In this document: in pieces, positions 22,575-43,202 of the stretch
Layout: every line of letters begins with the position of its first letter
How positions within the stretch are numbered: position 1 is the stretch's first letter
Source of the DNA: an uncultured Candidatus Saccharibacteria bacterium
GTDB lineage: Bacteria > Patescibacteriota > WWE3 > UBA101185 > UBA10185
Length of the DNA stretch: 64,000 nt
Reading direction: 5' to 3'
NCBI GenBank assembly: GCA_964643995.1
Contig: CAZXUJ010000001.1
Coordinates: forward strand, 337,492-401,491
Program-made: the position numbers and the translations under genes
Notes under the pieces: model-generated
Told to the model about the DNA's origin: nothing
Database searches by the model: none
What the model saw: the letters and a program-made list of their open reading frames with translations, nothing else

Positions 22575-22895
22575 CTTACTCTTAGCAGACCCACCTACTT
22601 GGCGTGTAAAATCCAATAATGGTTATACAAGACAAAAAACCCGAAAGGTAATAAACCTACGCCAAAAAGCAAAAGCAGGTAGGGCAGTAGTGAAAGACAC
22701 AATTTGCAGATATATATTCTTGAACATAAAACTCGGAGTTGATGAAGTGCTGTCGTACCAGTTAAAAGAGCCATTTGATACATTACTGAAAAGTAAAGAT
22801 ATACATTCTGGTCGAGCAGTACGGTCATGGAATTTTATATTCTCTAGGCTAGAAATGAGACAAAGGAGACAGTATAAAAAAGGGAGTGTTTTTTT

Positions 22896-23480
22896 TTATC
22901 TTGTAGCATTATTGTGCTCCTGTATTACTTCAAGGAATTTTGTTCCCTCTATTATTAGTACGTTTTTAAAGTTTCCTTCTAGCTTTCCGACCTGCTTAAG
23001 ATAATTAAAGTACCTCTTTAACCTATAGAATAGTTGGTATTTGTCCCCTCCGATTGGTAGCACTATTCCTATCTTTCCCATTACAGATGCATTTAATATA
23101 TCGCCAAAAGCACGTTTTGAATCTTTAGTGTTTTCTATTTCTATTGCAATAAAACACCTCGGATTTTTATTTAGGACACTCATAAAATCTTGAAAGCTCA
23201 TGTACTCATGTCCCTCAGCAACATGCGAAACACTATATAATTTTTCTAACAGATCTTTATGAATTTCGACCATTCTCTCAAATTTGTTGTTATTTACTGC
23301 AAGATTTTTGTCTATATTGAAAGGACCTAATGCAATATCCACCCTTGGTGCATAATAATCCCTACTATTAAAGTCATCTAAGCTGTTTTTTGCAGCATTC
23401 CATTCTTTCACAACACTATCCGGTGCATGTATTTTTTTGAGCTCTCCAAGTATTTTATCTGTGTATTCCTTTGTTTTCAT
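22896..23480 (-). CDS. Hypothetical protein with PD-(D/E)xK-like motif, last gene of the defence operon
   Basis: Start is 7 nt downstream of the helicase stop and in the same orientation. RVDIALGPF ... CFIAIEIENTK resembles the D...ExK nuclease core; this is an inference. Confidence 0.45.
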   Translation of the reverse strand: MKTKEYTDKILGELKKIHAPDSVVKEWNAAKNSLDDFNSRDYYAPRVDIALGPFNIDKNLAVNNNKFERMVEIHKDLLEKLYSVSHVAEGHEYMSFQDFMSVLNKNPRCFIAIEIENTKDSKRAFGDILNASVMGKIGIVLPIGGDKYQLFYRLKRYFNYLKQVGKLEGNFKNVLIIEGTKFLEVIQEHNNATR

Positions 23481-23487: not shown

Positions 23488-26034
23488 TTATCTTATTAGA
23501 AGCTTCGAAATTTCCATATATGCAATACTGTCTGGATCGATACTTTCTACTATAGATTTTATATTGATACTTATCTGTTGGTTTTCATCTAAGGATATTA
23601 GGTCGAAAAAATTTTTAAAAATATATTGCGCAGTATATCTAGATAATCCTAAATCCTGCAAAGCAATAATAAACATATTTGTGGTTCCATACTCTATATA
23701 TTTTGCCCAATTAGGACCTGCTTTGTCTTCACCAACAATGTAAGACAATGTTTGATGATAATGGTTGAAGTATTTTTCTAGCGTAAATCTAAGAATGTCT
23801 TCTATGTCGTTAAGAACACCAATTATTATACTGTTTATGTGTTGTTCGTTATTTTTGTCGAATACCCCTACTGGTTGGCCATATTCGTACATGGTTTTTT
23901 CGTTTTCAGAATACCATTTTATTGTGTTTAGAATAATTCTGTTTATGTTTGCTCCTCCTATCCATTGGTTCATTAGTGCCCCGTAGTAGGTTAATTTGTT
24001 ACTATTATCAAAGTTTTTTTCGATATGTTCCAATTGGTATAAGTCATTAAGGTACTTAAGTACATTCATACAAATTGGGTAGTTGATACTTGTTTCTGGA
24101 AGCGTTACAGGGTTACTCTTTATTGTAGTATAAACTTTGTTTTGTATATCAACATCTATCCACTCGTTTGCGCCCAAAATAGTGTATGGTACAACAATAT
24201 CTTTAACCTTTTCTTCTGCGATAGTCAGTATTTTAGATGAGTTATATGTTTTGATTTTATTGAGGGTGTAACTACTTGTTTCTCTCTTAGTTCCTATGGT
24301 GTCTACGCATATTATGTTGCTTATATACTTAATCTGTTCTTTTTCAGATTGCGTGCCGGATATTGGATTACCCTCAAGAACTTTAGTTAGCTTTATTCTA
24401 TTCCTTTCGAGTTTATCAGTTATAGTAGGTTCAACGTTTATATCTTTGGAGGGTGGTTTTTCTAATGATGTATCTTTTTCATTTTGTATGTAGAAAACAT
24501 TACCAATTAATTCTATATTGGTTCTACCAGCTCTTCCAGACAGATTCCAGAAATCTAGTTCATCCAGTTTAGCCAGGCCTTTTTTATTAGATAGAATGAA
24601 AAGATTAGTTGTTGGCAAATTTATACCTTCAAGTAATGTTGACGTAGTGAACATGTACCTAATTTCATTTTGTTTGTATAAATCTTCTATTATTAATCTA
24701 ATCTCTTGAGGTAGTTTTCCATAATGGAAGGCTATACCTAAAGACAAGAATTTTGCTAAGTAATAATCTTTATGAATATATCCTTTTATCTTATCTATTG
24801 CAGATTTTAGTTTTGGACTTGGTTCTACTTTTTCTACACGGCTAACGTACTCCGCCAGTTTCTTTGCATTTTCAACAACAGAGGCTACGGAATGACAGTA
24901 AACTAAACTATTTGAATATTGTCCTATTTTATGTACTAGTTCAATATAGTTGGTTGCAAAGTCATTCAGATTGTCACTAATGCACCTAAACTCCCCCTGC
25001 ATATTTTGATATATTATGTTTTCTTTGAAGTTGATTTTAAAGACATACTGCGAAACCGTGTTTTCATCAATACTAAAAGACTTGCCTTTGTTTTTTGAAA
25101 ATAATTCTAAATAGACATCTGGGTTTTTTACAAAAGGTGATGCAAAGTATAGATTTATTGCTGGAAATCTGTTTATAGCTTTTTCAATTGCTCTAAATGT
25201 AACTATACTCCGCACATCGTTCTTTGTTGTGATCTTATGTGCTTCGTCAACAAAAAGAAAACCCAATGGGGGGTTATTTTCTTTGTTAGCTAAATACCTA
25301 ATTAATCTCTCAGGAGTTAGTACGAGTAACAGATTTGAGTCTTCCTGAGTATTTATGATGGAACTTACACTTACCTTATAATTGAAGCGTTTTAATTCTT
25401 CTCCTAGTGAGGCATTTATATCTTCAACGTACTGATTTATTAGAGCTTTTGTAGGTACCAATGCCACTATGTTTTCTTTAGGTGCATTATGTAACACATG
25501 CCGTATAAAGTTCTTGATTAAAAAAGATTTACCAATTGATGTTGGACCAGAAAAACTAAACATCTTATTGGTAGTTAGCATGTTGTAAATTTTTAACTGA
25601 GTATCTGTAAAATATAAAGATTCTGTGTTAGGTACTGTATTACGAAGTTTCTTATAAGTTTCGTAAATCTCTCTTTCAAGTGGTACTTTTGTGTAATTAT
25701 CTTTTTCTCTTCCTAGTACATTTTTTGCAGGGAAGTTACCTAAGTTCGTAAATGTATTATATATACTTGTATTATGAAATGGATCATTTGAGAGCCTATT
25801 AACAGTAGCGACAATATTTAGCGCAATGTTCCTAAATTGGGATTCTTGAGTTAGAGATAATATATAGGCGCATCTCAACAGAAAGTCAAAATCTAGTTCC
25901 AAGTCACTCACTGATAGTTTTTCCAACTCAAACAGCTTCGAACTATATAGTAATTGCATTTGTTCATAGGCGTTTGTAAATTGCTCACTATTAACAAGCT
26001 CATTGGCCAATTTTTCTGCAACAGTCTTACTCAT
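23488..26034 (-). CDS. SF2 DEAH-box helicase, HamB-like (Hachiman helicase component)
   Basis: Motif I FSGPTSIGKS, motif II LGFLFVDEAHKI, motif VI NLSGRAGRTN, and a C-terminal extension of about 330 aa. Start codon overlaps the stop of the upstream 306-aa gene. Confidence 0.65.
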   Translation of the reverse strand: MSKTVAEKLANELVNSEQFTNAYEQMQLLYSSKLFELEKLSVSDLELDFDFLLRCAYILSLTQESQFRNIALNIVATVNRLSNDPFHNTSIYNTFTNLGNFPAKNVLGREKDNYTKVPLEREIYETYKKLRNTVPNTESLYFTDTQLKIYNMLTTNKMFSFSGPTSIGKSFLIKNFIRHVLHNAPKENIVALVPTKALINQYVEDINASLGEELKRFNYKVSVSSIINTQEDSNLLLVLTPERLIRYLANKENNPPLGFLFVDEAHKITTKNDVRSIVTFRAIEKAINRFPAINLYFASPFVKNPDVYLELFSKNKGKSFSIDENTVSQYVFKINFKENIIYQNMQGEFRCISDNLNDFATNYIELVHKIGQYSNSLVYCHSVASVVENAKKLAEYVSRVEKVEPSPKLKSAIDKIKGYIHKDYYLAKFLSLGIAFHYGKLPQEIRLIIEDLYKQNEIRYMFTTSTLLEGINLPTTNLFILSNKKGLAKLDELDFWNLSGRAGRTNIELIGNVFYIQNEKDTSLEKPPSKDINVEPTITDKLERNRIKLTKVLEGNPISGTQSEKEQIKYISNIICVDTIGTKRETSSYTLNKIKTYNSSKILTIAEEKVKDIVVPYTILGANEWIDVDIQNKVYTTIKSNPVTLPETSINYPICMNVLKYLNDLYQLEHIEKNFDNSNKLTYYGALMNQWIGGANINRIILNTIKWYSENEKTMYEYGQPVGVFDKNNEQHINSIIIGVLNDIEDILRFTLEKYFNHYHQTLSYIVGEDKAGPNWAKYIEYGTTNMFIIALQDLGLSRYTAQYIFKNFFDLISLDENQQISINIKSIVESIDPDSIAYMEISKLLIR

Positions 26035-26954
26035 TACTTAATTTTCCTTATTAATTCTTTTCTTGTATTAGAAATATCCGATAAAGGAATTATGTACAAA
26101 TAAACATTATGAAAGTTTAGCTCTTTATCCTCTAATGCCTTTGCTATAGTTTCTTTTTTTGACAATACTTCATTTTTAATCTGTTCTCTAAGTGCTACAG
26201 TAAATTCCATAGTTCCTTTGGCTTGCATCTCCTCGTCAAAATCTACATTAAACCCTAGTAAAATGCCGAATGCATCATCTGTTGGTATGTTATCTTTTGA
26301 TAATGCGGGAAAGAGTATTCGTTTAACTATTTTGTATTCATTTTCGCTAAGGCACTCTTTTATAAGGTTGGCATTTATTAGCCCTCGTTCATATGAAATT
26401 TTTCCCTCGGACTTTAACAGTTTTATAGACTTTACAGCCTCACTAATTCCACTTACTAGAGACTTGTGCACTTTTGATTCTCCGTAGATAAGCTGGTATT
26501 CCTCCTCCGATATTTTTAATAGATGAATACCATCAGAGCCTTTTACATAATCATTACCGGCTGTTTTTAATTCTAATTTAGAGATAATTTTAGGCGCCTC
26601 TAAATGACTTTCTAAAAAGCAATATAGGAGTAATTCTCCTAGTTCCCCATCATTAGATGCAGCTTTTCGCAGCTTTTCCTTTGCTCTATCATTTAGTTCC
26701 CCAAACCTTCCCTCTTTTACAAAGTTTTCAATTTCTTTTCTAGAAAGTGCATAATTGATCAGATTATTTGATAGCTCTGGTATCAAGGTGTCGTAGTCGA
26801 ATCTACTATTTCTTGTTTTCAAGATAAATAGGTCCAGTTTCTTATTGTCAGTAAGTTGGATCCCTTGTAATTCATGATAAAACAAGTTTAAGAACTCTTT
26901 ACTTGACCGGATCGACTTATTTATAGGATTTGTACCCATAGTTGCATTATACAT
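26034..26954 (-). CDS. HamA-like protein (putative DUF1837-type effector with D...ExK motif)
   Basis: 306 aa, immediately upstream of and translationally coupled to the helicase, in the classic Hachiman two-gene architecture. GSDGIHLL ... IYGESKVHK gives a D141 / E159-x-K161 PD-(D/E)xK-like arrangement. The domain call is an inference. Confidence 0.45.
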   Translation of the reverse strand: MYNATMGTNPINKSIRSSKEFLNLFYHELQGIQLTDNKKLDLFILKTRNSRFDYDTLIPELSNNLINYALSRKEIENFVKEGRFGELNDRAKEKLRKAASNDGELGELLLYCFLESHLEAPKIISKLELKTAGNDYVKGSDGIHLLKISEEEYQLIYGESKVHKSLVSGISEAVKSIKLLKSEGKISYERGLINANLIKECLSENEYKIVKRILFPALSKDNIPTDDAFGILLGFNVDFDEEMQAKGTMEFTVALREQIKNEVLSKKETIAKALEDKELNFHNVYLYIIPLSDISNTRKELIRKIK

Positions 26955-26988: not shown

Positions 26989-28107
26989 CTACTGTGCTTT
27001 TATAAGCATAGTTAGTTTCTCTTCTGTTTCATAACATCTTAATCTGCCACTCAAATATCCAACCCTATAACTAATACCATCGCTCATTAATCTCCAATTT
27101 GTATCCTCAAGGGTTTTGTTCAGAAGTTTTTTAAGCTGTTGTTTGCTGTCATATTCTTCTCTGTCTGATTTTTCATCTTGGGTAATAAAAGGTACAACAG
27201 CGTATTTACCTAATTCTGGCTTCTCAAATTGAAGTTCAATATAGCCTTCTTTTTCCAATGCCTCTTTAACAAGCTTGTTAAGCTCCACGACTTTTAGTTT
27301 TTTAAGGCTCATGGCTTTTTTATAAGCTGGATCTTCCTTCTTTTCTTTGTCTTTTTTTATATCGCTCATAAGATTAGAGAGATTTTCTGACCATAGTACA
27401 GCTTCATTACCTTCCTTTTCATTAAAACAAAATTCTTTTCTAAACTTTTTAAGTAATTCTTTATCTTTTGCTTCCTCTTTTTCCCGTTCTTCTCTCCATT
27501 TTTTATGATCATCAACTTTAACCTCTTTGTAATCGCAACCTGTGCATTTATGTGTCCAAGTAGTTTTATCTTTGTTATCGTCAATCTTTATTGAAACATC
27601 TATCTCAGAGCCACATTTTTCACATAATGTTGGGTTGCTTTCCCAAACTTCTCCATCATCATAATAGGCTTCTCTTTTGTGACATCTTGGGCATTCATAC
27701 ATAAACAAGACTCTAAAATTACTATCTAAACCTCTTTCCCAAGAGTCTTTGCTTATAACATCAAGCAAAACGTCACAGTCTTTGCAGTAGTATTCTCCTG
27801 AATCTGCATTATCATAAGTTTCTTGTTTTGTTCTATCTTTCTCCATCCATTCATTTATTGTTTTTTTCTTGCTTTTAAATCTTGTAACTTTAATTGAATA
27901 CAAGGTCATGTTTATTAAGCGTAACCAGTCATTTTTACGTTTTTCTTCAGAAATATTTTCTTTGTTTGGTAATTTCATTGCTTCGGGTAGCTTTTTGTAA
28001 AGGGCTTGGTAGTAGTCGAGGCATTCTTTGATTGTTACAAGGTCATGGAGATCGATATAGTATTGTTCTGGTTTGATAAATGTTTCAGATTCTAGTTTTT
28101 TTGCCAT
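26989..28107 (-). CDS. Double zinc-ribbon (4x CxxC) protein with Lys/Glu-rich coiled coil, unknown function
   Basis: CKDC, CPRC, CEKCG and CTGC pairs at residues about 108-190 form two C4 ribbons, followed by a KE-rich helix and a C-terminal domain. Start lies 2 nt after the hsdR stop. Confidence 0.5.
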   Translation of the reverse strand: MAKKLESETFIKPEQYYIDLHDLVTIKECLDYYQALYKKLPEAMKLPNKENISEEKRKNDWLRLINMTLYSIKVTRFKSKKKTINEWMEKDRTKQETYDNADSGEYYCKDCDVLLDVISKDSWERGLDSNFRVLFMYECPRCHKREAYYDDGEVWESNPTLCEKCGSEIDVSIKIDDNKDKTTWTHKCTGCDYKEVKVDDHKKWREEREKEEAKDKELLKKFRKEFCFNEKEGNEAVLWSENLSNLMSDIKKDKEKKEDPAYKKAMSLKKLKVVELNKLVKEALEKEGYIELQFEKPELGKYAVVPFITQDEKSDREEYDSKQQLKKLLNKTLEDTNWRLMSDGISYRVGYLSGRLRCYETEEKLTMLIKAQ

Positions 28108-28109: not shown

Positions 28110-31100
28110 TTAAGCATTTGCAAAACTAAATTGTGCATTTGCTCTAATCCCTGAAAGTACCCCAAAGATTAAATCTCTTTCTGCGGGCCCAAATACTCCG
28201 TCTATTCCTCGGTCGTCAATAAAGGTGAATGGCTGATCGTATAGGTCACCTGGCTTAACAATTCCAGTAGCAACGATATGATCTATGACTTTATCTAAAA
28301 ACTGCATTTGAGCCGCATTTAGATTATGTTTTTGCATAAACTCACTAAAGGCTGCTTTTGCTATGTCTCTATCCAGTCCAACAAGACTTCGTATAAATTC
28401 TCCAACTGTTTGTCCTTTGAGTGCATTCTCGAACTCAGTTTTATCGATATCATAGTTACTGCTGATTAATAGTGCTTCAATTTCCTGTATATCCATCTGA
28501 TCTAGTTTTTCATTATTCTTAATTTTCTGTATTGCAGATACAAACTCATTTTCTCTAATGATGGATTGCACCCTTTTCAAATAGTTGTCCCTGTTAGGTG
28601 CGTCTTTAACTACCCCACTTGAAGTGACGGTTGAACCATAAATAGTATCCGTAAAGTTTGTGTAGACTGCCTTTCTGTCTGGTGGATCAAGAAGTTTGAT
28701 TAAATCTCGTAAATCCCTACGTATCTCTTCTAGATCTTCGGTAGTTGGATTAGACCAAAAAGCCTCTTCTTTGATTTTGTTTATAGTAGCAATCTTTTCA
28801 GCAACTGCAGGAATATTGGCTTTCTCAAATAGTAGATCTGCTAATGTCATTACTCTTTTCTTGCTATTAGTAAGATTCTTAGATTCTTTAAGTGATTCAA
28901 CTTGCAGATTTAACATGAGGGAATCAAATCTTCTAGCAAATTCATCGTCATCTACGACAAGATTTGAAAATGGAGCAATGTGTTCATTAACATCCAACAC
29001 ATCTTGTTTACTTAGATTTTCCCAACGATCACGACTACTAAATTCATCAATATATCGTTTGTGTTTGCGTAGACTAAAACTCATCGGAGCCATCTGAGTT
29101 ACATCTTCATGTAGGATATTTAACAAGCTAAGTCTAAAGTCTTGCAAAGGTTGATTTTCGCTATACTTTCCTCCTTGTAGTTCATGCGCCAACTCAACTC
29201 GTCTTTCAAAAATCAATTGTGACAGTGGTTTCTGAGTTGAGCCTTTAATCCCCTCAGGATTGACTTTAAAGAATTCAAAATTTCCACAGAAATCAAAAAT
29301 CAAAAATTCTTTCTTATCGCCTTCTGGGCTATCCGGGCCAAACAGTTTTGGACATAAGCGAGTACCACGTCCTATCATTTGCCAGAATTTTGCTTTGGAA
29401 CGAGTAATTTTGAAAAAGACCAAGTTAACAATTTCAGGAATATCTATACCGGTATCAAGCATGTCTACCGAAACAGCAATAAAAGGGCTATCTGGTTTAT
29501 TTTGCTTAAATTCGTCAATTAAGGTATGAGAATAGTCGGCATAGTTATCGATCACTCTTAGTGCTCTGCCACTATAATGTGGGTAATTTTTGTTAAATCT
29601 CTCCTGAATAAACATGGCATGTTCGTGTCTTTTTGCAAAGATGATGGTTTTACCCAACCTATCACCACCTTCAACTTTTATTCCATTTTCCATTAAGTGC
29701 GCTAAAACCTGATCAACAGTATTTGTGTTGAATACCCAATCATTAAATTGAGATGGCGCAATCATCAATGGTAGTTGTCCGTCATCATCCTCAAAGGTCA
29801 TTTCATACATTTCTTTCTCTTCCTCGCTCAATTCGTCATATGTTAGACCTTCTGTTAAAAATTTGAGGGGTACATCAATCTGTTTTGGAGGTACTAAAAA
29901 CTTATCTTCAACTGCCTGATCTAGTTCATATGAATAAGTTGGGTTGTGGTCTTCTAGTCCAAATAATTCATAAGTGTTGTGATCAACCTCAGCTTTTGGA
30001 GTAGCAGTCAAGCCAATAAGTAGTGAATCAAAGTAATCAAAGATAGCACCATATTTCTGATATACACTCCTGTGTGCCTCATCAATGATAATCAAGTCAA
30101 ATCTACCAATACCAAATCTCTTTACTCCATCCTTCTTTGATTCATCAATCATATTCATCATAGTCGGATATGTGGAGAAAACGATGCGAGAAGTTGTATC
30201 TTCCTTTTCTTTGGTGATATCGATTGTAGTGGCTTCAGGATACAAATCATTAAAAGCCTCCTTAGCTTGAGTTAATAGAGCGTTTCTGTCTGCTAAGAAT
30301 AATACGTTTTTAATCCAGCCTTGCTTCATCAGTAACTCCACTAGAGCAATTGAAACTCTAGTTTTACCCGTTCCCGTTGCCATGACTATCAATGATCTTC
30401 TTTCTTTATGTTCTAGTTGTTCCAATACACTTTGGATTGCTAGTTTTTGGTAATACCTTCCAGCAACTTCATCATTGACCTGTGCTTCCAACAAACTCTT
30501 GCGAGTTTTGCGACGATTGATCATTGTTTGAAGCTGATCCTTAGTGTAAAAACCTTGAATAGGTCGCGGCGGATACATATCATCTTCCCAAATCCAATGA
30601 TCATATCCATTGGTATAGAAGATTACTGGCCTTTGCCCGTGTTTCTTTTCCAAGGCGTTTGCATACAGTTCTGCTTGCCTTTGTCCTTTTTGAGCATCAT
30701 GAGTTGTCCGTTTAGCTTCTACCAAACCTACTGGTAAACCATCATCTCCCCATAAAACATAGTCTACGTACCCAATACCTTTGTTGTTGGGCATACCCTC
30801 CACTTCGTATTCAGCTACATTTTCACCTTGTGGATCCCAGCCAGCCTCTTTTAGTAACAAGTCTATAAATAATTCTCTAGTTTCAGCCTCAGAATAGTCT
30901 TTTTGACTAACTTGTTTCTTATTCTTTTCCTTAGTGACTTGTATTTGTGTACGAAGTTCTTTAAGTTCCTCTTCATATTCAACTAACAGTAACTTCTGTT
31001 GTTCAAATTCTTTACCTTGTGAATCGAGCTTATCTTGCAATTGTTGTAGTTCTTCAGCATTTTTATCAGCCTCTCCTTCACGAGGAATAAAGGATTCTGA

Positions 31101-31502
31101 ATATTGCGGCAATTCTGGTTGCTCTTCACTGTATTGCATAGCCATCCATTCGCAGAAGTTGTAGAGATTTCTCAGAGAAGCTAGCGATTCTTTTTCACTA
31201 ATTGGTTTTCGGCTATGAACAGCTTGATTGCCAATTTTGCGGATGTAGTTGATCAAGTGAAAAAGGTTATATGGCAATAATCTTTTGAAACTTGGTTCAT
31301 GCATTAGGGCAGCCAAGTGTGTTTCGTAAGGTTGCTGCAAATCAGAGTCGTGTAAATACAACCAGTTGATGATCAGCTCTACAGTGCGTCGCGCGTAAAA
31401 CACCGAAGTGCGTGGTGCAGTAAACGTATGCTGTTCTGTTTGTAAAGCCTCTTCATAAATCTGCGGCCAGTTATTTTCTAAAAATGTAAAGTTTGATTTC
31501 AT
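28110..31502 (-). CDS. hsdR: Type I restriction enzyme R subunit
   Basis: N-terminal FLENNWPQIYEEALQTE-type domain, PD-(D/E)xK nuclease motif GYVDYVLWGDDGLPVGLVEAKRT, helicase motif I MATGTGKT, DEAH box IIIDEAHRS, and HsdR C-terminal domain; 1130 aa. Confidence 0.85.
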   Translation of the reverse strand: MKSNFTFLENNWPQIYEEALQTEQHTFTAPRTSVFYARRTVELIINWLYLHDSDLQQPYETHLAALMHEPSFKRLLPYNLFHLINYIRKIGNQAVHSRKPISEKESLASLRNLYNFCEWMAMQYSEEQPELPQYSESFIPREGEADKNAEELQQLQDKLDSQGKEFEQQKLLLVEYEEELKELRTQIQVTKEKNKKQVSQKDYSEAETRELFIDLLLKEAGWDPQGENVAEYEVEGMPNNKGIGYVDYVLWGDDGLPVGLVEAKRTTHDAQKGQRQAELYANALEKKHGQRPVIFYTNGYDHWIWEDDMYPPRPIQGFYTKDQLQTMINRRKTRKSLLEAQVNDEVAGRYYQKLAIQSVLEQLEHKERRSLIVMATGTGKTRVSIALVELLMKQGWIKNVLFLADRNALLTQAKEAFNDLYPEATTIDITKEKEDTTSRIVFSTYPTMMNMIDESKKDGVKRFGIGRFDLIIIDEAHRSVYQKYGAIFDYFDSLLIGLTATPKAEVDHNTYELFGLEDHNPTYSYELDQAVEDKFLVPPKQIDVPLKFLTEGLTYDELSEEEKEMYEMTFEDDDGQLPLMIAPSQFNDWVFNTNTVDQVLAHLMENGIKVEGGDRLGKTIIFAKRHEHAMFIQERFNKNYPHYSGRALRVIDNYADYSHTLIDEFKQNKPDSPFIAVSVDMLDTGIDIPEIVNLVFFKITRSKAKFWQMIGRGTRLCPKLFGPDSPEGDKKEFLIFDFCGNFEFFKVNPEGIKGSTQKPLSQLIFERRVELAHELQGGKYSENQPLQDFRLSLLNILHEDVTQMAPMSFSLRKHKRYIDEFSSRDRWENLSKQDVLDVNEHIAPFSNLVVDDDEFARRFDSLMLNLQVESLKESKNLTNSKKRVMTLADLLFEKANIPAVAEKIATINKIKEEAFWSNPTTEDLEEIRRDLRDLIKLLDPPDRKAVYTNFTDTIYGSTVTSSGVVKDAPNRDNYLKRVQSIIRENEFVSAIQKIKNNEKLDQMDIQEIEALLISSNYDIDKTEFENALKGQTVGEFIRSLVGLDRDIAKAAFSEFMQKHNLNAAQMQFLDKVIDHIVATGIVKPGDLYDQPFTFIDDRGIDGVFGPAERDLIFGVLSGIRANAQFSFANA

Positions 31503-32152
31503 AAACTAAATGATTCCACTAATGCAAATAAATTTTTAATAGCAGGATTTTCCGAAAAATAAAAACGATTATCCTCAAGATTCTTTCTGAGAAAGAATTG
31601 ATAATCTACCTCATTCTCTGTAGATATTGTCATCACAAAATCTAGATAGGGATATTTTAACTTAATTTCTTCATCAATCTCATAAGAATCAAGATTTTCA
31701 TCATATCGAAAACCAAATCTTTCTAATAAATTATTCCTATCAACATCTAAGTGATAGGCAAATACTCCAAATAACGGGATATTATCTTTATCCAAGTTTT
31801 TGATAATTTCAGCATCTTCATTTGCCTTTTTAAGATGTTGATTGGTAAGCCTACTTTTTATTTCCAACACTAGTTTGCAATAACGCACATGCATAACAAC
31901 ATTTCTGCTATTCGGTGGATCCAAGGGAGCACTAATTGAACAAAAAATGCTGTCGCATTGGGGACTGTGGGAGTCGTTGTCATTAAATAGTTCACCACTC
32001 TTAACAACTATATTTTTGTGTCGATTTAAAATTAAATCTTTCAAAAAGTCTTCCCTAACTGTTCCTAGGGTTGGTTTATGGATAAACTCACTAGAAACTT
32101 CATATTGAGCTAGAAGAAGTTTTTGATAATACTCAAAAACTGCATTAGACAT
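31499..32152 (-). CDS. Hypothetical protein inserted between hsdS and hsdR (possible D...ExK nuclease-like)
   Basis: 217-aa ORF overlapping hsdS by 8 nt at its start and overlapping hsdR's start (ATGA). QCDSIF ... CKLVLEIKSR gives a D...ExK-like pattern; this is an inference. Confidence 0.45.
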   Translation of the reverse strand: MSNAVFEYYQKLLLAQYEVSSEFIHKPTLGTVREDFLKDLILNRHKNIVVKSGELFNDNDSHSPQCDSIFCSISAPLDPPNSRNVVMHVRYCKLVLEIKSRLTNQHLKKANEDAEIIKNLDKDNIPLFGVFAYHLDVDRNNLLERFGFRYDENLDSYEIDEEIKLKYPYLDFVMTISTENEVDYQFFLRKNLEDNRFYFSENPAIKNLFALVESFSL

Positions 32153-33323
32153 TTAGACCTCCTATAAATGCTTTTTGCAGTAGAGATCTAAATAATATAT
32201 TGGTTACCTCTTTCGAGTTAATCATTGATTTTTTATTATCATCAATTGATTCAATTAACAACCTATACCTAGTCTGTAACTCAATAGGTGGTGTCAATAC
32301 GCTTATTTTTAATAAATTAGTTTGATTAATACCAGAGATTGTTGACTGAGTAATGTAGGGCTTAACATATTTATTTTTTGACCTTGTGTTGTTAAAAAAC
32401 TGCAGTAAATATTCACTATCAATTTTTGTTTGATTGGGTCTCACTCTAATTAGTGAGGATTCAAACACTAAATCATTGTTATCAATATTCCTAACAATGC
32501 TAGCCTTTGCTGCACCTTCAAGAACCAAAGATCTTCGTGCTATTAACAAATCATTATTATTTAATTGGTATTTTTCCAAATCATCCTTTGTTAACTCAAC
32601 AGACTGTTCAACCTCAGGTGTTACAACATCAGAAAATGCATCTGACATATGCACCATGGGAGTTCCCTCAACATTGTATTTTTCTTTTGGTAGGTATAAG
32701 CCATTTTTTGTATCTTCGACCAATTTATCCAAGGTAATCTCATCCCAGTTTTTAGGATTAGAGGCGGGATCTCCAAAAATTTCATAAAAAATAGCCTCTT
32801 TTAGTTCAGCCAATTTTTCAATTGTTTTTTCTCTTTTCTTTTGCATAGCATCGGCCTCGTCCAAAATCTCCACAATTTGCTGTTGTACTTTAAGTTGAGG
32901 AAGGGGGACTTTAATTTTTTTTAAGTATTTAAAATGACGGCTATACCCGTCATTAGGAAGATTTAATGTATGAAAAAAATAGTAGGCATACTTTGGCTCA
33001 ATCTTTTTATTGCAAGAAATAATTTTGGTACCATCTGCCCCAGCCGCAAAATCAAAATCGATATATTTAAACTTTCTAGTGTGATCCCCAAAAATAATTA
33101 GAGGTTGTGATGCTTCAATAATACCAATATTATTGTTCGTATAACCACCTATAAGCTCATCTCCCTGATCAACGATTGGATAAACCCCCTCATCTATATA
33201 AGATGATTTCTTGAACTTTTTTGGAGGTGTGATGGTATCAAACAAGGCATCAAAGGTAGCAATATCCCAAGTATTTGGCAGACTAGAAAATAATGCTGGA
33301 TTTTGAATTACACTATTTATCAT
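32145..33323 (-). CDS. hsdS: Type I restriction-modification specificity subunit
   Basis: Two target-recognition domains separated by the conserved central helix (LPLPQLKVQQQIVEILDEADAMQKKRE), with a conserved C-terminal repeat (LLQKAFIGGL). Confidence 0.8.
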   Translation of the reverse strand: MINSVIQNPALFSSLPNTWDIATFDALFDTITPPKKFKKSSYIDEGVYPIVDQGDELIGGYTNNNIGIIEASQPLIIFGDHTRKFKYIDFDFAAGADGTKIISCNKKIEPKYAYYFFHTLNLPNDGYSRHFKYLKKIKVPLPQLKVQQQIVEILDEADAMQKKREKTIEKLAELKEAIFYEIFGDPASNPKNWDEITLDKLVEDTKNGLYLPKEKYNVEGTPMVHMSDAFSDVVTPEVEQSVELTKDDLEKYQLNNNDLLIARRSLVLEGAAKASIVRNIDNNDLVFESSLIRVRPNQTKIDSEYLLQFFNNTRSKNKYVKPYITQSTISGINQTNLLKISVLTPPIELQTRYRLLIESIDDNKKSMINSKEVTNILFRSLLQKAFIGGLNV

Positions 33324-34840
33324 AGGTTAGTTTTTAATCTCTTTAGACTTTCCTGAATTTCATATTCAATTTTTTCTAAATCCTCAATAATCCTCTTTGG
33401 TTCTTCATATTCCACGTCTTCATACTCAATCTCTTTATACCGATTTATTGAGAGGTCATAGTCATTTTCGCGGATTTCTTTGACTGGCACTACGAAAGAT
33501 TGATCGGTTCTTACCCTGGCTTCTTCATCTTTAAGATTATGATAGCGTTTGATGATATCGGGAGTGTTATTTTCCTCATGTTTTTCAAGATCAAGCTCTT
33601 GGCGTTTATCATCAAGCGAATACCCATCAGCCTTCATGTCATAAAACCAAACGTTATCAGTACCGCCTGAGTTGGTCTTTGTAAACAGAAGCACTGCAGT
33701 AGAAACACCCGCGTAAGGTTTGAATACACCAGATGGCATGGATATTACTCCTTGAAGCTGATGATCATCTATAAGAAGTTTTCTAATTGCCTTATGCGCA
33801 TTGGAGCTACCAAACAACACACCATCGGGAACAATTACTGCGGCACGGCCACCAGTTCTAAGTTGTTGGATAAATAATGCAATAAACAACAACTCAGTTT
33901 TCTTAGTTCGGACAATCTGCAATAAATCATTTGCTACCACTTCATAATCCAACGATCCTTTAAATGGAGGATTGGCTAGAATCACATCATATTTGTTTCT
34001 TGTTTCTGCTTGGCTTTGAGATAGTGCATCCTTGTCAGTCACGTTGGGGTTTTCGATACCGTGAAGCACTAAGTTCATCACAGCAATACGGATCATAGTA
34101 CGATCAAAGTCGTTGCCATAAAACATAGTGTTGTTGAAATGATCTCGCAATTTATCATCAGTAAATATTTCGGGATAGGTATCACGGACATATTCACTAG
34201 CTGCTACTAAAAATCCTCCAGTTCCACAAGCAGGATCCGCAATCTTGTCAGTTCGCTTTGGTTCCACCAACTCAACCATCATTTTAATAATGTGTCGTGG
34301 AGTTCTAAATTGACCGTTTCTACCTGCCGTCGCTATTTTTGAAAGTAAGTATTCGTACACATCTCCCTTGGTATCTCTGTCATGCATCTTGATTTCATTG
34401 AGCATGTTGACGACCTTGTCCAACAGGTTTGGGGTAGGAATCATGAAGGTTGCATCTTTCATGTATTGGGTATAGGTGTCCTCTGTTTTGCCATTTAGGT
34501 TTTTTATAAAGGGAAAAACATCCTCAGAAACAATCTCATACATCTTTTTGGGCTCAAGATCTTTAAACCTAGACCAACGCAGTTGTTGTTGATTATCAGA
34601 AAAGATTGGCTTAGTTATTTCAGTTTTTTGTGCGTTAGCCTTATTTTCACGCAGTGTGTGGATTTCATCTAAACGTTTAATAAAAAGGAGATATGTGATT
34701 TGTTCTATGACTGTTAGTGGATTAGAAATACCACCTGTCCAAAAAGCATCCCATACTCTGTCAATTTCTGTTTTTAATTTTCCTGTTAACATAAGGACAT
34801 TATAACTCGTGATTTTGTTGTAGTCCTGCAATTTATACAA
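33320..34840 (-). CDS. hsdM: Type I restriction-modification DNA methyltransferase subunit (N6-adenine)
   Basis: HsdM N-terminal domain, motif I DPACGTGGFL, motif IV ILANPPFKGS. The stop overlaps the hsdS start. Confidence 0.85.
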   Translation of the reverse strand: MYKLQDYNKITSYNVLMLTGKLKTEIDRVWDAFWTGGISNPLTVIEQITYLLFIKRLDEIHTLRENKANAQKTEITKPIFSDNQQQLRWSRFKDLEPKKMYEIVSEDVFPFIKNLNGKTEDTYTQYMKDATFMIPTPNLLDKVVNMLNEIKMHDRDTKGDVYEYLLSKIATAGRNGQFRTPRHIIKMMVELVEPKRTDKIADPACGTGGFLVAASEYVRDTYPEIFTDDKLRDHFNNTMFYGNDFDRTMIRIAVMNLVLHGIENPNVTDKDALSQSQAETRNKYDVILANPPFKGSLDYEVVANDLLQIVRTKKTELLFIALFIQQLRTGGRAAVIVPDGVLFGSSNAHKAIRKLLIDDHQLQGVISMPSGVFKPYAGVSTAVLLFTKTNSGGTDNVWFYDMKADGYSLDDKRQELDLEKHEENNTPDIIKRYHNLKDEEARVRTDQSFVVPVKEIRENDYDLSINRYKEIEYEDVEYEEPKRIIEDLEKIEYEIQESLKRLKTNL

Positions 34841-35054
34841 TATTAGTTAGCGGTTGCACCCCCTCTTGTCAAGTAGGGGTTGGTTTGACAACTAAAAACA
34901 AGTGTTGTACTTTATAATTATTGAGAGTTGAATAGTAAAAAAATACCTACCTCTTACTTCATAGTAAGCAGGTTATGCTCGATATGTATGGGGCCGAGCG
35001 TTAGGAAGTAATCACTTCGATTATTTTCTGGCGTTCGGCCCTTTTTTTGTTTGT

Positions 35055-36374
35055 ATGAAAGAAGAATTAAAAATAATAAAAGTTAATATTAAGGACTTAA
35101 AAGTTGCAGATTATAACCCTCGAAAGTGGGATAAAACAAAAACTCAAAATTTAAAAGAAAGTATTGGAAAATTTGGGCTAGTTGATCCCTTGATTGTTAA
35201 TTCTGCACCAAGTAGAAATAATGTTGTAATTGGTGGCCATTTTCGCTTACAAGTTGTCAAAGAACTTGGCTATGCAGATGTACCAATTGTCTATTTAAAT
35301 ATTCCAGATATTGAAAAAGAAAAGGAATTGAATGTAAGGCTTAATAAGAATACAGGTGATTGGGATTACAAGTTGTTAGCCGAGTTTGACTCCTCCTTAC
35401 TAGATATTGTTGGTTTTAACAGTGAGGAGCTAGACGATATCTTTGGTTTAGACGAAACCCCAGAAGAGTTTAATCTGCAAAAAGAGTTAGAAAAATTAAA
35501 CATTCAAGAAATTTCTACAGTAGATGGTGATATCTATCAATTGGGTGAACATCGCCTAATGTGTGGTAATTCAACAATAGAAGATGATGTCCTAAAACTC
35601 ATGGACGGCGAAAAAGCGGATATGTGTTTTACAGACCCTCCATATATTCTCGACTATTTGAAAGGTAAAAAGAAAAGCGATAAGGGTTTTGGACTAAAGA
35701 AAAATAGAAGGTATTTAGGTACAGATTCATTGCCTGATGATTTCACTGAATTATGGATGTCAAACATCTCAAAAGTACAAAAGGATGACTTCTCAATCAT
35801 TGTTTTTGAGAATTGGAAAAACATAAGAACTATCTGGGATGCAATGGAAGATTACTGGAAAGTTAAAAACATGATTGTTTGGCATGTTCCAAATAGGACA
35901 CAGGGGTTTTCTGGAAAATACAGATTTTTCTCAAAGCATGATATTGCAATGGTTGGTGCGTCTCCAAATTCTGATATTCCTTTTAATCTAGAAGAAGAAA
36001 TTGAGGGTCTACAAAATGAGTATGAAACGGCACTATATGCAATTTCTGGTAAACCTCATTGGGAAAGTTATAAAAAGGGTAAAAAATACCAACCAACAGA
36101 TTATATTGATCATCCTGTAGATGATGCCAAACATTCAGGACAAGGTATCGTATTTGGTACGAAACCAATAGAAATATTAATTCCCTATATAAAAGTTTTA
36201 ACTAAAAGAAATGATTTAATAATTGAGCCTTTTGGTGGTAGTGGCTCTACTCTTATTGCCTCTACAAAGATGAAAAGAAGATGCTATGTGATGGAAAAAT
36301 CCCCCGTTTATGTAGAAATAATAAAACATAGATGGGAAAAATTGACTGGGCAGAAAGGGGTAAAAATACAATGA
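35055..36374 (+). CDS. ParB-like nuclease domain fused to DNA methyltransferase (phage-type orphan N6A/N4C MTase)
   Basis: N-terminal ParB/Srx fold (KVADYNPRKW..., GGHFRLQVVKELG). C-terminal MTase motifs DPPY (MCFTDPPY) and FGGSGST (IIEPFGGSGSTLIAS). Confidence 0.8.
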   Translation: MKEELKIIKVNIKDLKVADYNPRKWDKTKTQNLKESIGKFGLVDPLIVNSAPSRNNVVIGGHFRLQVVKELGYADVPIVYLNIPDIEKEKELNVRLNKNTGDWDYKLLAEFDSSLLDIVGFNSEELDDIFGLDETPEEFNLQKELEKLNIQEISTVDGDIYQLGEHRLMCGNSTIEDDVLKLMDGEKADMCFTDPPYILDYLKGKKKSDKGFGLKKNRRYLGTDSLPDDFTELWMSNISKVQKDDFSIIVFENWKNIRTIWDAMEDYWKVKNMIVWHVPNRTQGFSGKYRFFSKHDIAMVGASPNSDIPFNLEEEIEGLQNEYETALYAISGKPHWESYKKGKKYQPTDYIDHPVDDAKHSGQGIVFGTKPIEILIPYIKVLTKRNDLIIEPFGGSGSTLIASTKMKRRCYVMEKSPVYVEIIKHRWEKLTGQKGVKIQ

Positions 36375-36778
36375 GCAAATTAATTCAAAAAAGGCAAAAG
36401 CAAGAAAAAGAAGCATTAATAGAACAATTGAAGAAAACCCCAATAATACAAATGGCGTGCAAAAATGCAGGTGTTGGGAGAGCAACATACTATCGCTGGA
36501 GAAACCAAGATTACAAATTCGCACAAAAAGCAGATGAAGCATTAGAAATGAGTGTAAGTCTTATGAATGATTTAGCTGAGTCCCAGCTTATATCAGCAAT
36601 TAGAGACAAAAACATGACTGCAATAATCTTTTGGTTAAAACATAGGCATCAAGGTTATTCCACAAAAGTACTACTTTCTGGCTCCCTTGAGACCTCTATA
36701 AAGCTTTCTCCTGAACAACAGAAAGTATTTAAAAAAGCCGTACATTTAGTTTTTGGTGAGAATTCAGATGTCGAATAA
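36371..36778 (+). CDS. terS: Phage terminase small subunit (HTH-containing)
   Basis: HTH GVGRATYYRWRN and the IIFWLKHRH motif typical of small terminases. ATGA overlap with the upstream MTase; followed directly by terL. Confidence 0.6.
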   Translation: MSKLIQKRQKQEKEALIEQLKKTPIIQMACKNAGVGRATYYRWRNQDYKFAQKADEALEMSVSLMNDLAESQLISAIRDKNMTAIIFWLKHRHQGYSTKVLLSGSLETSIKLSPEQQKVFKKAVHLVFGENSDVE

Positions 36779-38324
36779 TACACGAAAAAAAGACTTAGAT
36801 ATTGTTTACGAAAGAATCCTAAGCGATAAAGCTTTTAGAATTAAGACTACTTCTGAGATGCACAAGTGGTTTTTTGTTACCTATTTTAGTGAATATGCAA
36901 AGTACAAGATTGCCCCTTTCCAAGAAGAAATGTTCAGATTAAGTGAATTGGATGATACTCCTCTAGTTGTTATCGAAGCGTTCAGGGGTTGTGGAAAGAC
37001 AACTATATTAGTTCTTTCGTACATCTTGTGGGCTGTTTTAGGTAGTCAGGGGAAAAAACACATCTTGATTGCTAGTCAAAGCTTAGATAAAGCAATGAGT
37101 ACCTTAAGAGATATAAAGACCATTCTTGAGACTAATAAATTGCTTATAGATGATTATGGGCCCTTTAGAATTCCTCCTGAACCTTGGAAAGAAAAATCGC
37201 TACACCTACCAAAGTATGATGCAAAAATAGTTCCTATTTCAGTGGAAGTAAGTCCAAGAGGCTATATACACAAAAGCAAAAGACCTGACTTAATAATTAT
37301 TGATGACCTCGAAAGTATAAATACCATAAATTCAGTTGAAATGAGAGATAAAGCGTTTAAATGGTACATGGAAGAAGTTGTTCCTAGTGGTGATGTGGAT
37401 ACAAAGATTGTAATAACAGGTAACTTTTTACATTCTGATTCTTTAATAAAACGCCTGCAAGTAATGATTGATAATGATGAGCTTGACGGCATTTATAGGC
37501 GGTATCCTTTTTATGATTCAGATAATAAACCTTTGTGGTTTAGTAAATTTCCTACATCTAAAGAAATCACCGCTTTAAAGAAAAAGGTTGGAAAAGATTC
37601 TTGGCTAAGAGAGTATCTGTTGGAGGATATTCCAGTCGGAACTAGCCCAATAACTAAAAACCTAATCAAGTATTACTCTGATTTACCTACTCAAAACATT
37701 GCCAAACAAATAAAACTACAGTATGTGGGTACGGGAGTTGACCTCGCTATATCCAAACAATCTACTGCACACTACACAGCTATGGTGTCCGTAAAGGTAT
37801 TTTATGTAGGTAACAAAGTTAATGTCTATATCCTTCCAAATCCTATAAACGCTAGATTAACTTTCCCAGAAGCATTCGATACTGTAAAAAGAGTTTCCAA
37901 AGCATTAGATCCAAATGGGGATGCAACCCCAATAATAGTTGAGACCATAGCTTATCAGGAGGCAATGGAACAGGCTCTAGTGCAGGAAACATTTCCTGTT
38001 AAAGGAATAAAACACAATTCGCTAGATAAAATGGCAAGATTAAGTTTAGTTGCAAATTTTATGGCAGACCATAATATCAATTTTCCAACGTCTGGTTCTG
38101 AATTGCTTATTTCTCAACTTTTAGGTTTTGGTAGTGAAAGATACGACGATCTTGCTGATGCTTTCACAATGATCATGACTGAAGTAATGGAAAGATGTAG
38201 TTTTAGACCATACAACTGGGATTACAAACCAAAGCCAGCACCCCCTTCTAAAAGTTTATTTAGTGACTTACATAGAGATATGTCTGATCCTGTAACAAAA
38301 GGACTAATAGACATGAAATTCTAA
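36753..38324 (+). CDS. terL: Phage terminase large subunit (ATPase + nuclease)
   Basis: Walker A-like FRGCGKTTIL, Walker B LIIIDDLE, and a C-terminal RNaseH-like nuclease region (GVDLAIS...DLADAF). Sits downstream of terS. Confidence 0.75.
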   Translation: MVRIQMSNNTRKKDLDIVYERILSDKAFRIKTTSEMHKWFFVTYFSEYAKYKIAPFQEEMFRLSELDDTPLVVIEAFRGCGKTTILVLSYILWAVLGSQGKKHILIASQSLDKAMSTLRDIKTILETNKLLIDDYGPFRIPPEPWKEKSLHLPKYDAKIVPISVEVSPRGYIHKSKRPDLIIIDDLESINTINSVEMRDKAFKWYMEEVVPSGDVDTKIVITGNFLHSDSLIKRLQVMIDNDELDGIYRRYPFYDSDNKPLWFSKFPTSKEITALKKKVGKDSWLREYLLEDIPVGTSPITKNLIKYYSDLPTQNIAKQIKLQYVGTGVDLAISKQSTAHYTAMVSVKVFYVGNKVNVYILPNPINARLTFPEAFDTVKRVSKALDPNGDATPIIVETIAYQEAMEQALVQETFPVKGIKHNSLDKMARLSLVANFMADHNINFPTSGSELLISQLLGFGSERYDDLADAFTMIMTEVMERCSFRPYNWDYKPKPAPPSKSLFSDLHRDMSDPVTKGLIDMKF

Positions 38325-38446
38325 CCTTTTGAGGTATAATTGCCTTAGAAAATTAAACAGCCGCGAAGAAAATCCACTATTTTGTGGTGCATGAAACCTT
38401 AAAAGGGGCTACTCTTCAGGGTTTCATGCTTCGCGGCTGTTACTAC

Positions 38447-38464
38447 AAGGGTAGTCCCTTTTTT
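38447..38464 (+). terminator. Intrinsic terminator downstream of terL and of a large hairpin
   Basis: AAGGG-tagt-CCCTT stem-loop followed by TTTTTT. Confidence 0.45.
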
Positions 38465-38555
38465 ATGTACAGTTGCAAAAATAACTACAATTTAAAAACT
38501 TGCCTATATTTAAGTGGTCTGTCATCAATCATCTTGAAAAATAAATTTATATTGT

Positions 38556-40114: not shown

Positions 40115-40196
40115 AGTGCAATTATACTTGGGAAAAGGAAATGCAGGTGAAGTTGTTTTTTCTCAAGAGTTCGTATTTCCAATAGACATTTAGTTT

Positions 40197-40703: not shown

Positions 40704-40710
40704 TGTGTAG

Positions 40711-43004: not shown

Positions 43005-43125
43005 ATGTTGTTGTAAACTAAACCAAATCAAGCAAAACAGCGGTTCGTGAGTTAAAAAATCAATAGGGGTTTTATCAAACCATTAACGGGTAATTTAAGC
43101 ATCATGGTCACAATGATGCCCATTC

Positions 43126-43202
43126 TGGTCGGGGTGACAGGACTCGAACCTGCGACCTCACGCACCCCATGCGTGCGCGCTAGCCAACTGCGCCACACCC
43201 CG
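43126..43202 (-). tRNA. tRNA-Pro (anticodon GGG)
   Basis: Minus-strand cloverleaf: acceptor CGGGGUG/CACCCCG, D-stem GCGC/GCGC, anticodon stem CACGC/GCGUG with loop AUGGGGU, T-loop UUCGAGU, discriminator A, and encoded CCA. Confidence 0.85.

Follow-up and report, generated by a model that had tools for sequence, protein, structure and literature searches.

A predicted type I Hachiman system beside a Type I restriction-modification operon on an apparent integrative element of a CPR bacterium

Two adjacent genes in a 64-kb stretch of DNA (hereafter the window, meaning the whole stretch that was analysed) from a small-genome CPR (Patescibacteria) bacterium had been proposed, from the letters alone, to form a Hachiman-like module retained in a reduced genome. 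We asked whether the pair is a genuine and intact Hachiman system, and whether it stands by itself or travels with its surroundings. In the ORF list both genes lie on the minus strand:

23488..26034, minus strand: hamB, an 848-aa Ski2/Hel308-like SF2 helicase, predicted sensor/regulator
26034..26954, minus strand: hamA, a 306-aa DUF1837 PD-(D/E)xK-type predicted effector nuclease

The layout described by the original prediction, a small effector-like gene followed by a large SF2 helicase with motifs I, II (DEAH) and VI, is present, as is the stop/start overlap that it reported. At the junction (...AAG TAATG AGT...) the stop codon of hamA and the start codon of hamB have one base in common within TAATG, and this overlap suggests that the two genes are co-transcribed or translationally coupled. 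The order, with hamA directly upstream of hamB, is identical in the relatives at two other loci, L006 and L087.

HamA matched the Pfam family PF08878 (HamA/DUF1837) with an E of 4.3e-56 (190.8 bits; the cut-off is 25 bits), its residues 57-291 aligning with positions 3-230 of the 230-position profile, and matched PADLOC HamA1 (PDLC00156) with an E of 5.7e-102 (residues 14-305 on 4-296 of 298). The closest relative is 46% identical. D141 and E159-S-K161, which had been put forward as compatible with the HamA nuclease motif, are part of an intact set of predicted catalytic residues (E104, E107, D141, E159 and K161), and among 61 diverse relatives the corresponding columns are conserved: D141 and E107 in 58 each, E159 and K161 in 46 each, and also E115 in 60. 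D141/E159-x-K161 represents the D-E(X)K motif conserved across the family. In the same motif of E. coli ECOR31 HamA, the E138A/K140A substitutions abolish defence (Tuck et al. 2024, PMC12278908). When the HamA profile built from the 61 sequences was run against the PDB, it reached only the fused variants 9wh1_A and 8zue_A; ECOR31 HamA (8vx9_A) lay beyond the reach of this lineage's profile at E<=1, so that the equivalence to E138/K140 is taken from the motif by itself. The residues found to be essential in HamA of the Streptococcus thermophilus type III-B Hachiman, D90/E93/D127/E147/K149 (Tian et al. 2025, PMC13064477), all have counterparts in the window protein at nearly identical spacing, 3/34/20/2 in S. 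thermophilus and 3/34/18/2 for E104/E107/D141/E159/K161.

HamB matched PADLOC HamB1 (PDLC00176) end to end, with an E of 9.8e-246 and 815.9 bits (residues 4-846 on 2-845 of 845), and its best match among solved structures is itself a HamB, 9wh1_B (E 1.9e-126, residues 10-843 on 9-850). Neither this HamB1 score nor the Pfam score of HamA could plausibly arise by chance. These alignments, which run from end to end, indicate that the HamB-specific N-terminal helical region, predicted to bind HamA, and the C-terminal helical region are both present. The helicase motifs are easily read: motif I GPTSIGKS at 163-170, motif II DEAH at 263-266, motif V TSTLLEGIN at 464-472 and the motif VI core GRAGR at 500-504. 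Pfam found DEAD, ResIII and Helicase_C, and the remote PDB matches were Ski2, Brr2, Hel308, Pol theta and Mtr4. The closest relative of HamB is 55% identical, and a pattern scan of GTDB species-representative genomes returned no close one. The sequence thus shows directly that both proteins belong to their families over their whole length, that the catalytic and ATPase motifs are intact and that the genes are coupled, and the profile check that had been set beforehand, DUF1837 for the small protein and HamB for the helicase, came out in favour of Hachiman for both. By sequence, hamA-hamB is a known kind of system, an ordinary intact Hachiman. Very probably the pair makes up a type I Hachiman (PADLOC HamA1/HamB1) that is complete and apparently functional, whose mechanism would follow that of its homologues and which most likely is the cargo of a mobile element, all of these taken together.

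We weighed two other readings of the pair itself. If the helicase were a housekeeping DNA-repair enzyme of the Hel308, RecQ or Rad25 kind that happens to adjoin an unrelated nuclease, the locus would have nothing to do with defence. CPR genomes contain few repair helicases, and over about 100 residues of the RecA2 domain HamB does resemble Hel308, Pol theta, Ski2 and Brr2 (E 1e-7 to 1e-12). The Hel308-type NCBIfam equivalogs, however, score only 37-53 bits on HamB against cut-offs of 887-1216, more than 800 bits short; RecQ and Rad25 models gave no match to it, and the Pfam search found neither RQC nor HRDC. The HamB profile and the solved HamB cover all 848 residues, the partner is a full-length HamA, and the locus has a lower G+C content (0.32-0.33 against ~0.37) and is part of a defence island carried by an apparent mobile element. 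The exact HamA and HamB proteins each form a singleton cluster confined to one contig, and therefore are not conserved core genes. The housekeeping reading is effectively refuted, and the helicase groups with HamB as had been foreseen. An AbpAB-like variant of Hachiman, in which DUF1837 is dead and another domain cleaves, was suggested by the closest solved complex, 9wh1, where the partner of a HamB-like helicase is a HamA of 528 aa, extended at its N-terminus, whose DUF1837 lacks the triad (H, A and F at the positions aligned to D141, E159 and K161). The window HamA, in contrast, has 306 residues and no N-terminal fusion or other second domain, and it keeps D141, E159, K161, E104 and E107, which refutes this variant at the level of sequence and leaves it scarcely any probability.

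The type I Hachiman so identified can be placed among the characterised systems. Like ECOR31 HamAB (PDB 8VX9, PMC12278908), it has two genes in the order hamA-hamB, a stand-alone DUF1837 HamA with D-E(X)K, and a Ski2/Hel308-like SF2 HamB with an N-terminal HamA-binding region; defence by ECOR31 needs the activities of both HamA and HamB (Tuck et al. 2024, PMC12278908). The sequences are nevertheless very divergent, as 8vx9_B (1174 aa) matches only the RecA2 region of the window HamB (E 2.5e-9), motif II is DEGH in ECOR31 and DEAH here, the C-terminal OB-like domain is reported only for the ECOR31 subtype (Tian et al. 2025, PMC13064477), and the host is E. coli in one case and a CPR bacterium in the other. 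The complex of PDB 9WH1/9WHK/9WHU holds the closest solved relative of the helicase (9wh1_B, 853 aa, matched end to end as above), and the DUF1837 domain is homologous in the HamA proteins of the 9WH1 type and of AbpAB (PDB 8ZUE, PMC11914072; profile E 2.7e-35); those proteins, of 528-565 aa, have an added N-terminal domain (a Cap4-type nuclease in AbpA) and an inactive DUF1837, whereas the window HamA is unfused, with its triad intact. The S. thermophilus system shares with the window, besides the HamA residues, the essential Walker A Lys and motif II Asp of HamB, and its HamA depends on the presence of HamB for activity (Tian et al. 2025, PMC13064477). It is linked to a repressing PezAT toxin-antitoxin; the window system is linked instead to a Type I R-M operon and two unannotated genes, described below.

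On the precedent of the characterised homologues (Tuck et al. 2024, PMC12278908; Cui et al. 2025, PMC11914072; Tian et al. 2025, PMC13064477), HamA and HamB would assemble as a 1:1 complex, in which HamB, as an ATP-dependent Ski2/Hel308-like DNA helicase, would grip HamA through its N-terminal helical region and so restrain the D-E(X)K nuclease of the DUF1837 domain for as long as the complex scans undamaged double-stranded DNA. Upon phage infection, HamB would bind damaged DNA or free 3' single-stranded ends and hydrolyse ATP there, and this hydrolysis would activate HamA, either released or still in the complex; the published models conflict on this point, some having HamA released from HamB and others having it cleave within the complex (PMC12278908, PMC13064477, PMC11914072). 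Active HamA may then break down DNA of any origin, so that the infection is aborted and the cell sacrificed.

The hamAB pair is not isolated. It forms the distal portion of an array of eight minus-strand genes, in the order HsdM, HsdS, DUF6602, HsdR, a 372-aa ORF (Zn372), HamA, HamB and a 194-aa ORF (orf194), which are separated by gaps of no more than 34 nt or overlap. A Type I R-M operon (28110..34840) lies immediately upstream on the same strand. The members of the array other than hamA and hamB are:

33320-34840, minus strand: hsdM of the Type I R-M operon (Pfam N6_Mtase/HsdM_N)
32145-33323, minus strand: hsdS of the Type I R-M operon (Pfam Methylase_S)
31499-32152, minus strand: DUF6602 gene within the Type I R-M operon (Pfam DUF6602)
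28110-31502, minus strand: hsdR of the Type I R-M operon (Pfam ResIII/HSDR_N/EcoEI_R_C; PADLOC REase_I, E 6e-191)
26989..28107, minus strand: Zn372, 372 aa with two CxxC...CxxC zinc ribbons, unannotated
22896..23480, minus strand: orf194, 194 aa, starting 7 nt past the hamB stop, unannotated

A search for terminators inside the array found none, and a promoter consensus scan gave 40 sites, fewer than the 48.5 expected from shuffled controls, none of them assignable. Restriction by the Type I R-M enzymes and abortive infection by Hachiman could act as layers of one defence, restriction first and abortive infection second.

Beyond the array, the defence genes fall within a region of ~20 kb that also encodes a large serine recombinase, TerS/TerL and a ParB-methyltransferase and that adjoins a tRNA-Pro gene. 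The backbone genes of this putative element (35055..42006, plus strand) diverge from the defence array, and the features on that side and at the candidate ends are:

35055-36374, plus strand: ParB_N-N6/N4 methyltransferase (Pfam ParB_N+N6_N4_Mtase)
36332-36778, plus strand: TerS-like (PHROG small-subunit families)
36753-38324, plus strand: TerL (PHROG terminase large subunit phrog_38, E 3e-58)
38556-39302, plus strand: orf248
between orf248 and the serine recombinase, minus strand: two ORFs without an assigned family
40711-42006, plus strand: large serine recombinase (Resolvase+Recombinase+Zn_ribbon_recom)
43126-43202, minus strand: tRNA-Pro(GGG)
22804..22814, plus strand: candidate left junction with CATTCTGGTCG as att core; the orf194 stop lies 82 nt away
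43121..43202, minus strand: candidate right junction, with a second CATTCTGGTCG copy (43121-43131) overlapping the 3' end of tRNA-Pro(GGG)

A site-specific recombinase and packaging genes are both present, as they would be in a prophage or a phage satellite. Searches of the ORFs at 35-43 kb against Pfam and PHROG gave no match for capsid, portal or tail genes, of which highly divergent ones could escape, and the DNA other than cargo amounts to only ~8 kb. The identity of TerL to sequenced phages does not exceed 27%. The LeuRS of the host, which places it among CPR bacteria, reaches no more than 61% identity with Microgenomates/WWE3-type MAGs. The 11-mer CATTCTGGTCG occurs exactly twice in the 64-kb window against 0.02 expected, both times at a predicted junction, a count made post hoc in a search where repeats of 9-10 nt also match by chance; in none of the 92 compared loci was it found, and L091 and L004 gave only low-complexity 10-mers when inspected for a comparable repeat. 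We tentatively regard the two copies as candidate att junctions. Taken together, these findings make it most likely that hamAB, with the Type I R-M operon at its side, is carried as cargo by an integrative element of ~20 kb in the CPR host. Of the original prediction that the system is "retained" in a reduced genome, the reduced genome stands, the host being a small-genome CPR bacterium, but retention is the less likely part: since the locus looks like the cargo of an integrated mobile element, "acquired" fits better.

The backbone is shared with L087 at 70-91% amino acid identity, and at lower identity with L003, L088 and L091. The related element in L087 bears a different Hachiman lineage, 34-41% identical. 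In its compact, integrative form, in its recombinase and packaging genes, and in a conserved backbone that flanks differing defence systems (Type I R-M and Hachiman in the window, the other Hachiman in L087, Shedu in L091), the window element resembles P4-like satellites, P2-like phages and PICIs (PMC13586616, PMC10085698). Unlike these, it is found in a CPR host and carries a large serine recombinase rather than a tyrosine integrase; it encodes TerS and TerL itself, lacks recognisable genes for capsid, portal or tail, and has no known helper phage. A literature search on CPR phage satellites or serine-recombinase elements yielded nothing specific. Hachiman may be the cargo of an undescribed family of CPR elements, compact, tRNA-adjacent and satellite-like, with a backbone of about 6-8 kb (large serine recombinase, TerS/TerL, ParB-methyltransferase) and two defence hotspots flanking the conserved zinc-ribbon gene Zn372, whose slots variably hold Type I R-M, two unrelated Hachiman lineages, Shedu and others; as a whole we consider this reading possible yet rather doubtful. 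If true, Zn372 and orf194 would be new defence-associated or element-maintenance proteins, mainly of CPR.

Identification of a Hachiman system alone adds little, as Hachiman occurs in >5% of prokaryotic genomes, structural work has already explained how it functions, and it is already catalogued in ~0.5-2% of CPR MAGs. The mildly unusual point is its position beside R-M, on what looks like an integrated mobile element of a CPR bacterium with a small genome. The locus illustrates cleanly how a bacterium that is ultra-small and depends on a host could gain layered immunity (restriction plus an abortive-infection nuclease-helicase) by way of a mobile element of small size. Defence systems in CPR are few per genome but dense per Mb, and the locus is therefore relevant to this pattern. 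More useful leads are the apparently recurrent CPR element with exchangeable defence slots, and the two families of conserved proteins, well predicted in structure yet unassignable, orf194 (~50 members) and Zn372 (>460), that track CPR defence islands.

The close linkage of these two genes to hamAB raised the question of whether they belong to a larger, three- or four-gene Hachiman, with orf194 and/or Zn372 as functional accessories of HamAB that serve, for example, as an additional nuclease, as a regulator or as a brake of the antitoxin type. The 7-nt distance from hamB to orf194 and the 34-nt distance from Zn372 to hamA speak for it, as do the precedents of Pez-Ham and trypsin-MBL-Hachiman, and an 81%-identical Zn372 copy directly follows the different HamAB of L087, overlapping the 3' end of hamB. 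Zn372, however, is upstream of HamAB in the window, 2 nt from hsdR, and downstream in L087, an inconsistent placement, and at loci where no Hachiman is present its homologues neighbour Shedu, Type I and Type II R-M, an RT or PLD-SNF2 systems. Homologues of orf194 (up to 66% identical) likewise come after unrelated large NTPases, namely a 1077-aa helicase in L003 and a 916-aa AAA_21 ATPase in L004, or after other genes (L001), and none lies beside the HamAB of L006 or L087. An extended system is thus unlikely, although the two tightly linked genes could modify HamAB; orf194 is a recurrent defence-island gene and not a conserved component of Hachiman, and both families recur in CPR defence islands.

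The orf194 product has no match in Pfam, PADLOC, NCBIfam or PHROG, and hmmsearch against the PDB gave nothing meaningful. An invariant P-R-x-D ... E-x-E ... K pattern is reminiscent of the PD-(D/E)xK core and would suit a second nuclease, but such a fold was not confirmed with the AF2 model (pLDDT 94), for which the best Foldseek E against the PDB was 0.5 (XPF/SgrAI probability 0.13); nor was a distant relation to HamA, with an hhalign probability of 0.3% against the HamA profile. For Zn372 (AF2 pLDDT 92), Foldseek and hmmsearch returned only non-significant generic resemblances, to zinc ribbons (Rpb9/NrdR-like) and small ferredoxin-like folds (S24e/S6). Every one of its 467 homologues is labelled "hypothetical", and the named members are almost all Patescibacteria; eight cysteines are invariant, and all seven of the inspected genomic contexts are rich in defence genes.

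The two genes described in the original prediction as a Hachiman-like module are both present on the minus strand:

26034-26954 (-), hamA, 306 aa
23488-26034 (-), hamB, 848 aa

They overlap in the stop/start manner described, the hamA stop and the hamB start having one base in common (AAG-TAATG-AGT). The 306-aa protein indeed carries D141 and E159-S-K161, and the 848-aa protein carries SF2 motif I (GPTSIGKS, at 163), motif II (DEAH, at 263), motif V (at 464) and the motif VI core (GRAGR, at 500). Profile comparisons proposed with the prediction agreed with it. The smaller protein matched the DUF1837 profile Pfam PF08878 (HamA) at E 4.3e-56 and 190.8 bits (cut-off 25 bits; profile 3-230 of 230), as well as 21 HamA models of PADLOC, the top match being HamA1 (PDLC00156; E 5.7e-102, profile 4-296 of 298). 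Residues 4-846 of the helicase aligned to positions 2-845 of 845 of PADLOC HamB1 (PDLC00176; E 9.8e-246), and its closest solved relative is HamB 9wh1_B (E 1.9e-126, residues 10-843 aligned). Judged from sequence, hamAB is a type I Hachiman system that is intact and of an ordinary kind; it adds a divergent new member to a family already well characterised. We rejected a housekeeping identity for the helicase: NCBIfam Hel308-type equivalogs scored only 37-53 bits against cut-offs of 887-1216, and Pfam found no RecQ-specific domain in the 848-aa protein.

HamA has a conserved D-E(X)K motif, and defence is lost upon HamA E138A/K140A or HamB motif II mutation (Tuck et al., PMC12278908). In S. thermophilus HamA, D90, E93, D127, E147 and K149 are essential (Tian et al., PMC13064477); their spacing (3/34/20/2) is nearly equal to that of E104/E107/D141/E159/K161 in the window's HamA (3/34/18/2). 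When 61 diverse representatives were aligned, D141 was conserved in 58, and E159 and K161 in 46 each; E107 (58/61) and E115 (60/61) were further conserved columns. A profile of the window's HamA lineage did not reach ECOR31 HamA (8vx9_A) at E<=1, so that the motif, rather than a direct alignment, underlies the equivalence to E138/K140. The nearest solved HamA, 9wh1_A (528 aa), in contrast, has H, A and F in place of D141, E159 and K161, and possesses an additional N-terminal region, whereas the window's HamA is unfused. 9wh1_A fits the AbpA-like state, where the DUF1837 domain is dead and serves to recruit a different effector (PMC11914072; PMC12278908). Being unfused and having kept the triad, the window's HamA is predicted to be of the canonical stand-alone nuclease type. 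We noted that 9wh1_B is partnered with this 528-aa HamA, which lacks the catalytic D/E/K in DUF1837, while the closely related HamB of the window is paired with an unfused HamA predicted to be catalytically intact; one HamB lineage thus appears to exchange active for inactive forms of HamA.

By homology, the N-terminal helical region of HamB would bind HamA and restrain it on intact dsDNA. The helicase would be engaged by DNA damage or by 3' ssDNA ends arising in infection, ATP binding and hydrolysis would activate HamA, and activated HamA would degrade DNA, aborting the infection (PMC12278908). Studies differ as to whether HamA is released or cuts DNA inside the complex (PMC12278908; PMC13064477; PMC11914072).

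The reduced genome assumed for the host was borne out by a Patescibacteria-type LeuRS and a source contig of 403 kb. The LeuRS gene (46744-49062) shows <=61% identity to any GTDB species representative, with best matches in WWE3, Woesebacteria, Levybacteria and other Patescibacteria MAGs. According to a groundwater defensome survey (PMC12259885), CPR bacteria have few defence systems per genome, yet many per Mb, and mobile elements are a place of enrichment for such systems. In the source data of this survey, the share of MAGs with Hachiman is 0.5% in Microgenomatia, 0.6% in Paceibacteria and ABY1, 1.1% in Saccharimonadia and 2.2% in JAEDAM01, and R-M is found in 40-56%; Hachiman is therefore uncommon in CPR, yet already recorded there. 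The lineage found here is divergent (nearest HamB 55% identity, nearest HamA 46%), and the exact HamA and HamB are singletons in a collection of 15 billion proteins. HamB-like genes are common on plasmids (161 records).

hamAB forms the distal portion of a closely packed minus-strand array, the other genes of which are:

33320-34840 (-), hsdM
32145-33323 (-), hsdS
31499-32152 (-), DUF6602 gene
28110-31502 (-), hsdR
26989-28107 (-), Zn372, a 372-aa zinc-ribbon ORF
22896-23480 (-), orf194, a 194-aa ORF starting 7 nt after hamB

The G+C content is 0.32-0.33 over 24-28 kb versus ~0.37 for the window. The DUF6602 gene sits between hsdS and hsdR, overlapping both, and another DUF6602 gene (locus L092, 12004-12798) has a Zn372 homologue and a Type I R-M system nearby; the gene may serve as an accessory to R-M. 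Where hsdM and the ParB-methyltransferase gene diverge, the intergenic region contains a long, near-perfect hairpin (34993-35039, +) with a 20-bp stem followed by a T-run. It could be a regulatory or terminator-like structure where backbone and cargo meet.

orf194 has ~50 homologues and Zn372 >460, none annotated, and the named ones are nearly all from Patescibacteria. Both gave confident AlphaFold2 models (pLDDT 94 and 92, respectively), with no significant match for either in Foldseek against the PDB or in profile searches. Invariant in the orf194 family are Y43, P45, D48, N104, N106, P107, R108, C109, K122, G126 and N130; a PD-(D/E)xK fold was not confirmed. Zn372 combines two zinc ribbons, formed by eight invariant Cys, with long helices and an alpha/beta domain at the C-terminus. 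An accessory role of these proteins in Hachiman seems unlikely to us: orf194 homologues are always tightly coupled to the 3' ends of differing large NTPase or helicase operons and are missing from two other HamAB loci, and the neighbourhoods of Zn372 homologues, defence-rich in 7/7 contexts checked, are mostly without Hachiman. We therefore treat both as defence-island or element genes rather than as Hachiman components.

Divergent from hsdM lie genes for a ParB_N-N6/N4 methyltransferase, a TerS-like protein, TerL and a large serine recombinase, with three ORFs without assignment preceding the latter. An 11-mer, CATTCTGGTCG, has exactly two copies in the window. The coordinates of these features are:

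35055-42006, backbone genes of the putative element
40711-42006, large serine recombinase, with tRNA-Pro(GGG) next
43126-43202, tRNA-Pro(GGG)
22804-22814, first copy of CATTCTGGTCG, 82 nt past orf194
43121-43131, second copy, overlapping the 3' end of tRNA-Pro(GGG)

The copies suggest an element of ~20.3 kb (22815-43120), the boundaries being tentative as the repeat was found post hoc and shorter matches arise by chance, and as two related loci yielded no comparable repeat. TerL matches phrog_38 (E 3e-58) and has <=27% identity to any sequenced phage. No phage structural genes were recognised in the element, which therefore resembles a satellite or remnant rather than a complete prophage.

The related locus L087 (GCA_020051655.1) shares with the window the ParB-methyltransferase (90% identity), recombinase (91%), TerL (72%), TerS (70%), orf248 (a backbone ORF at 38556-39302, +; 77%) and Zn372 (81%). 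Identity to the window's proteins is only 41% for its HamA and 34% for its HamB, and its hamAB lies on the opposite side of Zn372. In L091 the same backbone carries Shedu after the zinc-ribbon gene, L088 has methyltransferases and unannotated genes in the cargo positions, and in L003 a 1077-aa helicase occurs together with an orf194 homologue and a zinc-ribbon fusion of 560 aa. The pattern fits conserved slots with exchangeable defence cargo; Hachiman, proposed to be notably retained in a reduced genome, is therefore better described as acquired, the reduced genome itself standing. The whole looks like a CPR satellite-like integrative element with defence hotspots, putative and only partly established. 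A literature search did not find the family described, and it is mainly this setting that makes the locus interesting: a family of CPR integrative elements, putative and apparently undescribed, that has defence hotspots and the two unassigned conserved proteins orf194 and Zn372.

The 5' end of tRNA-Pro(GGG) with its upstream flank (43191-43211, 21 nt) is duplicated at 43238-43258, 47 nt apart and with one mismatch, which could be a scar left at the tRNA by integration or excision in the past. Just outside the element, a gene adjoining an RDD-family gene (43776-44474, -) encodes a 232-aa protein matching Pfam NpmA (E 8e-52, 176 bits, cut-off 60), a 16S rRNA (adenine1408-N1)-methyltransferase of an aminoglycoside-resistance-type family.
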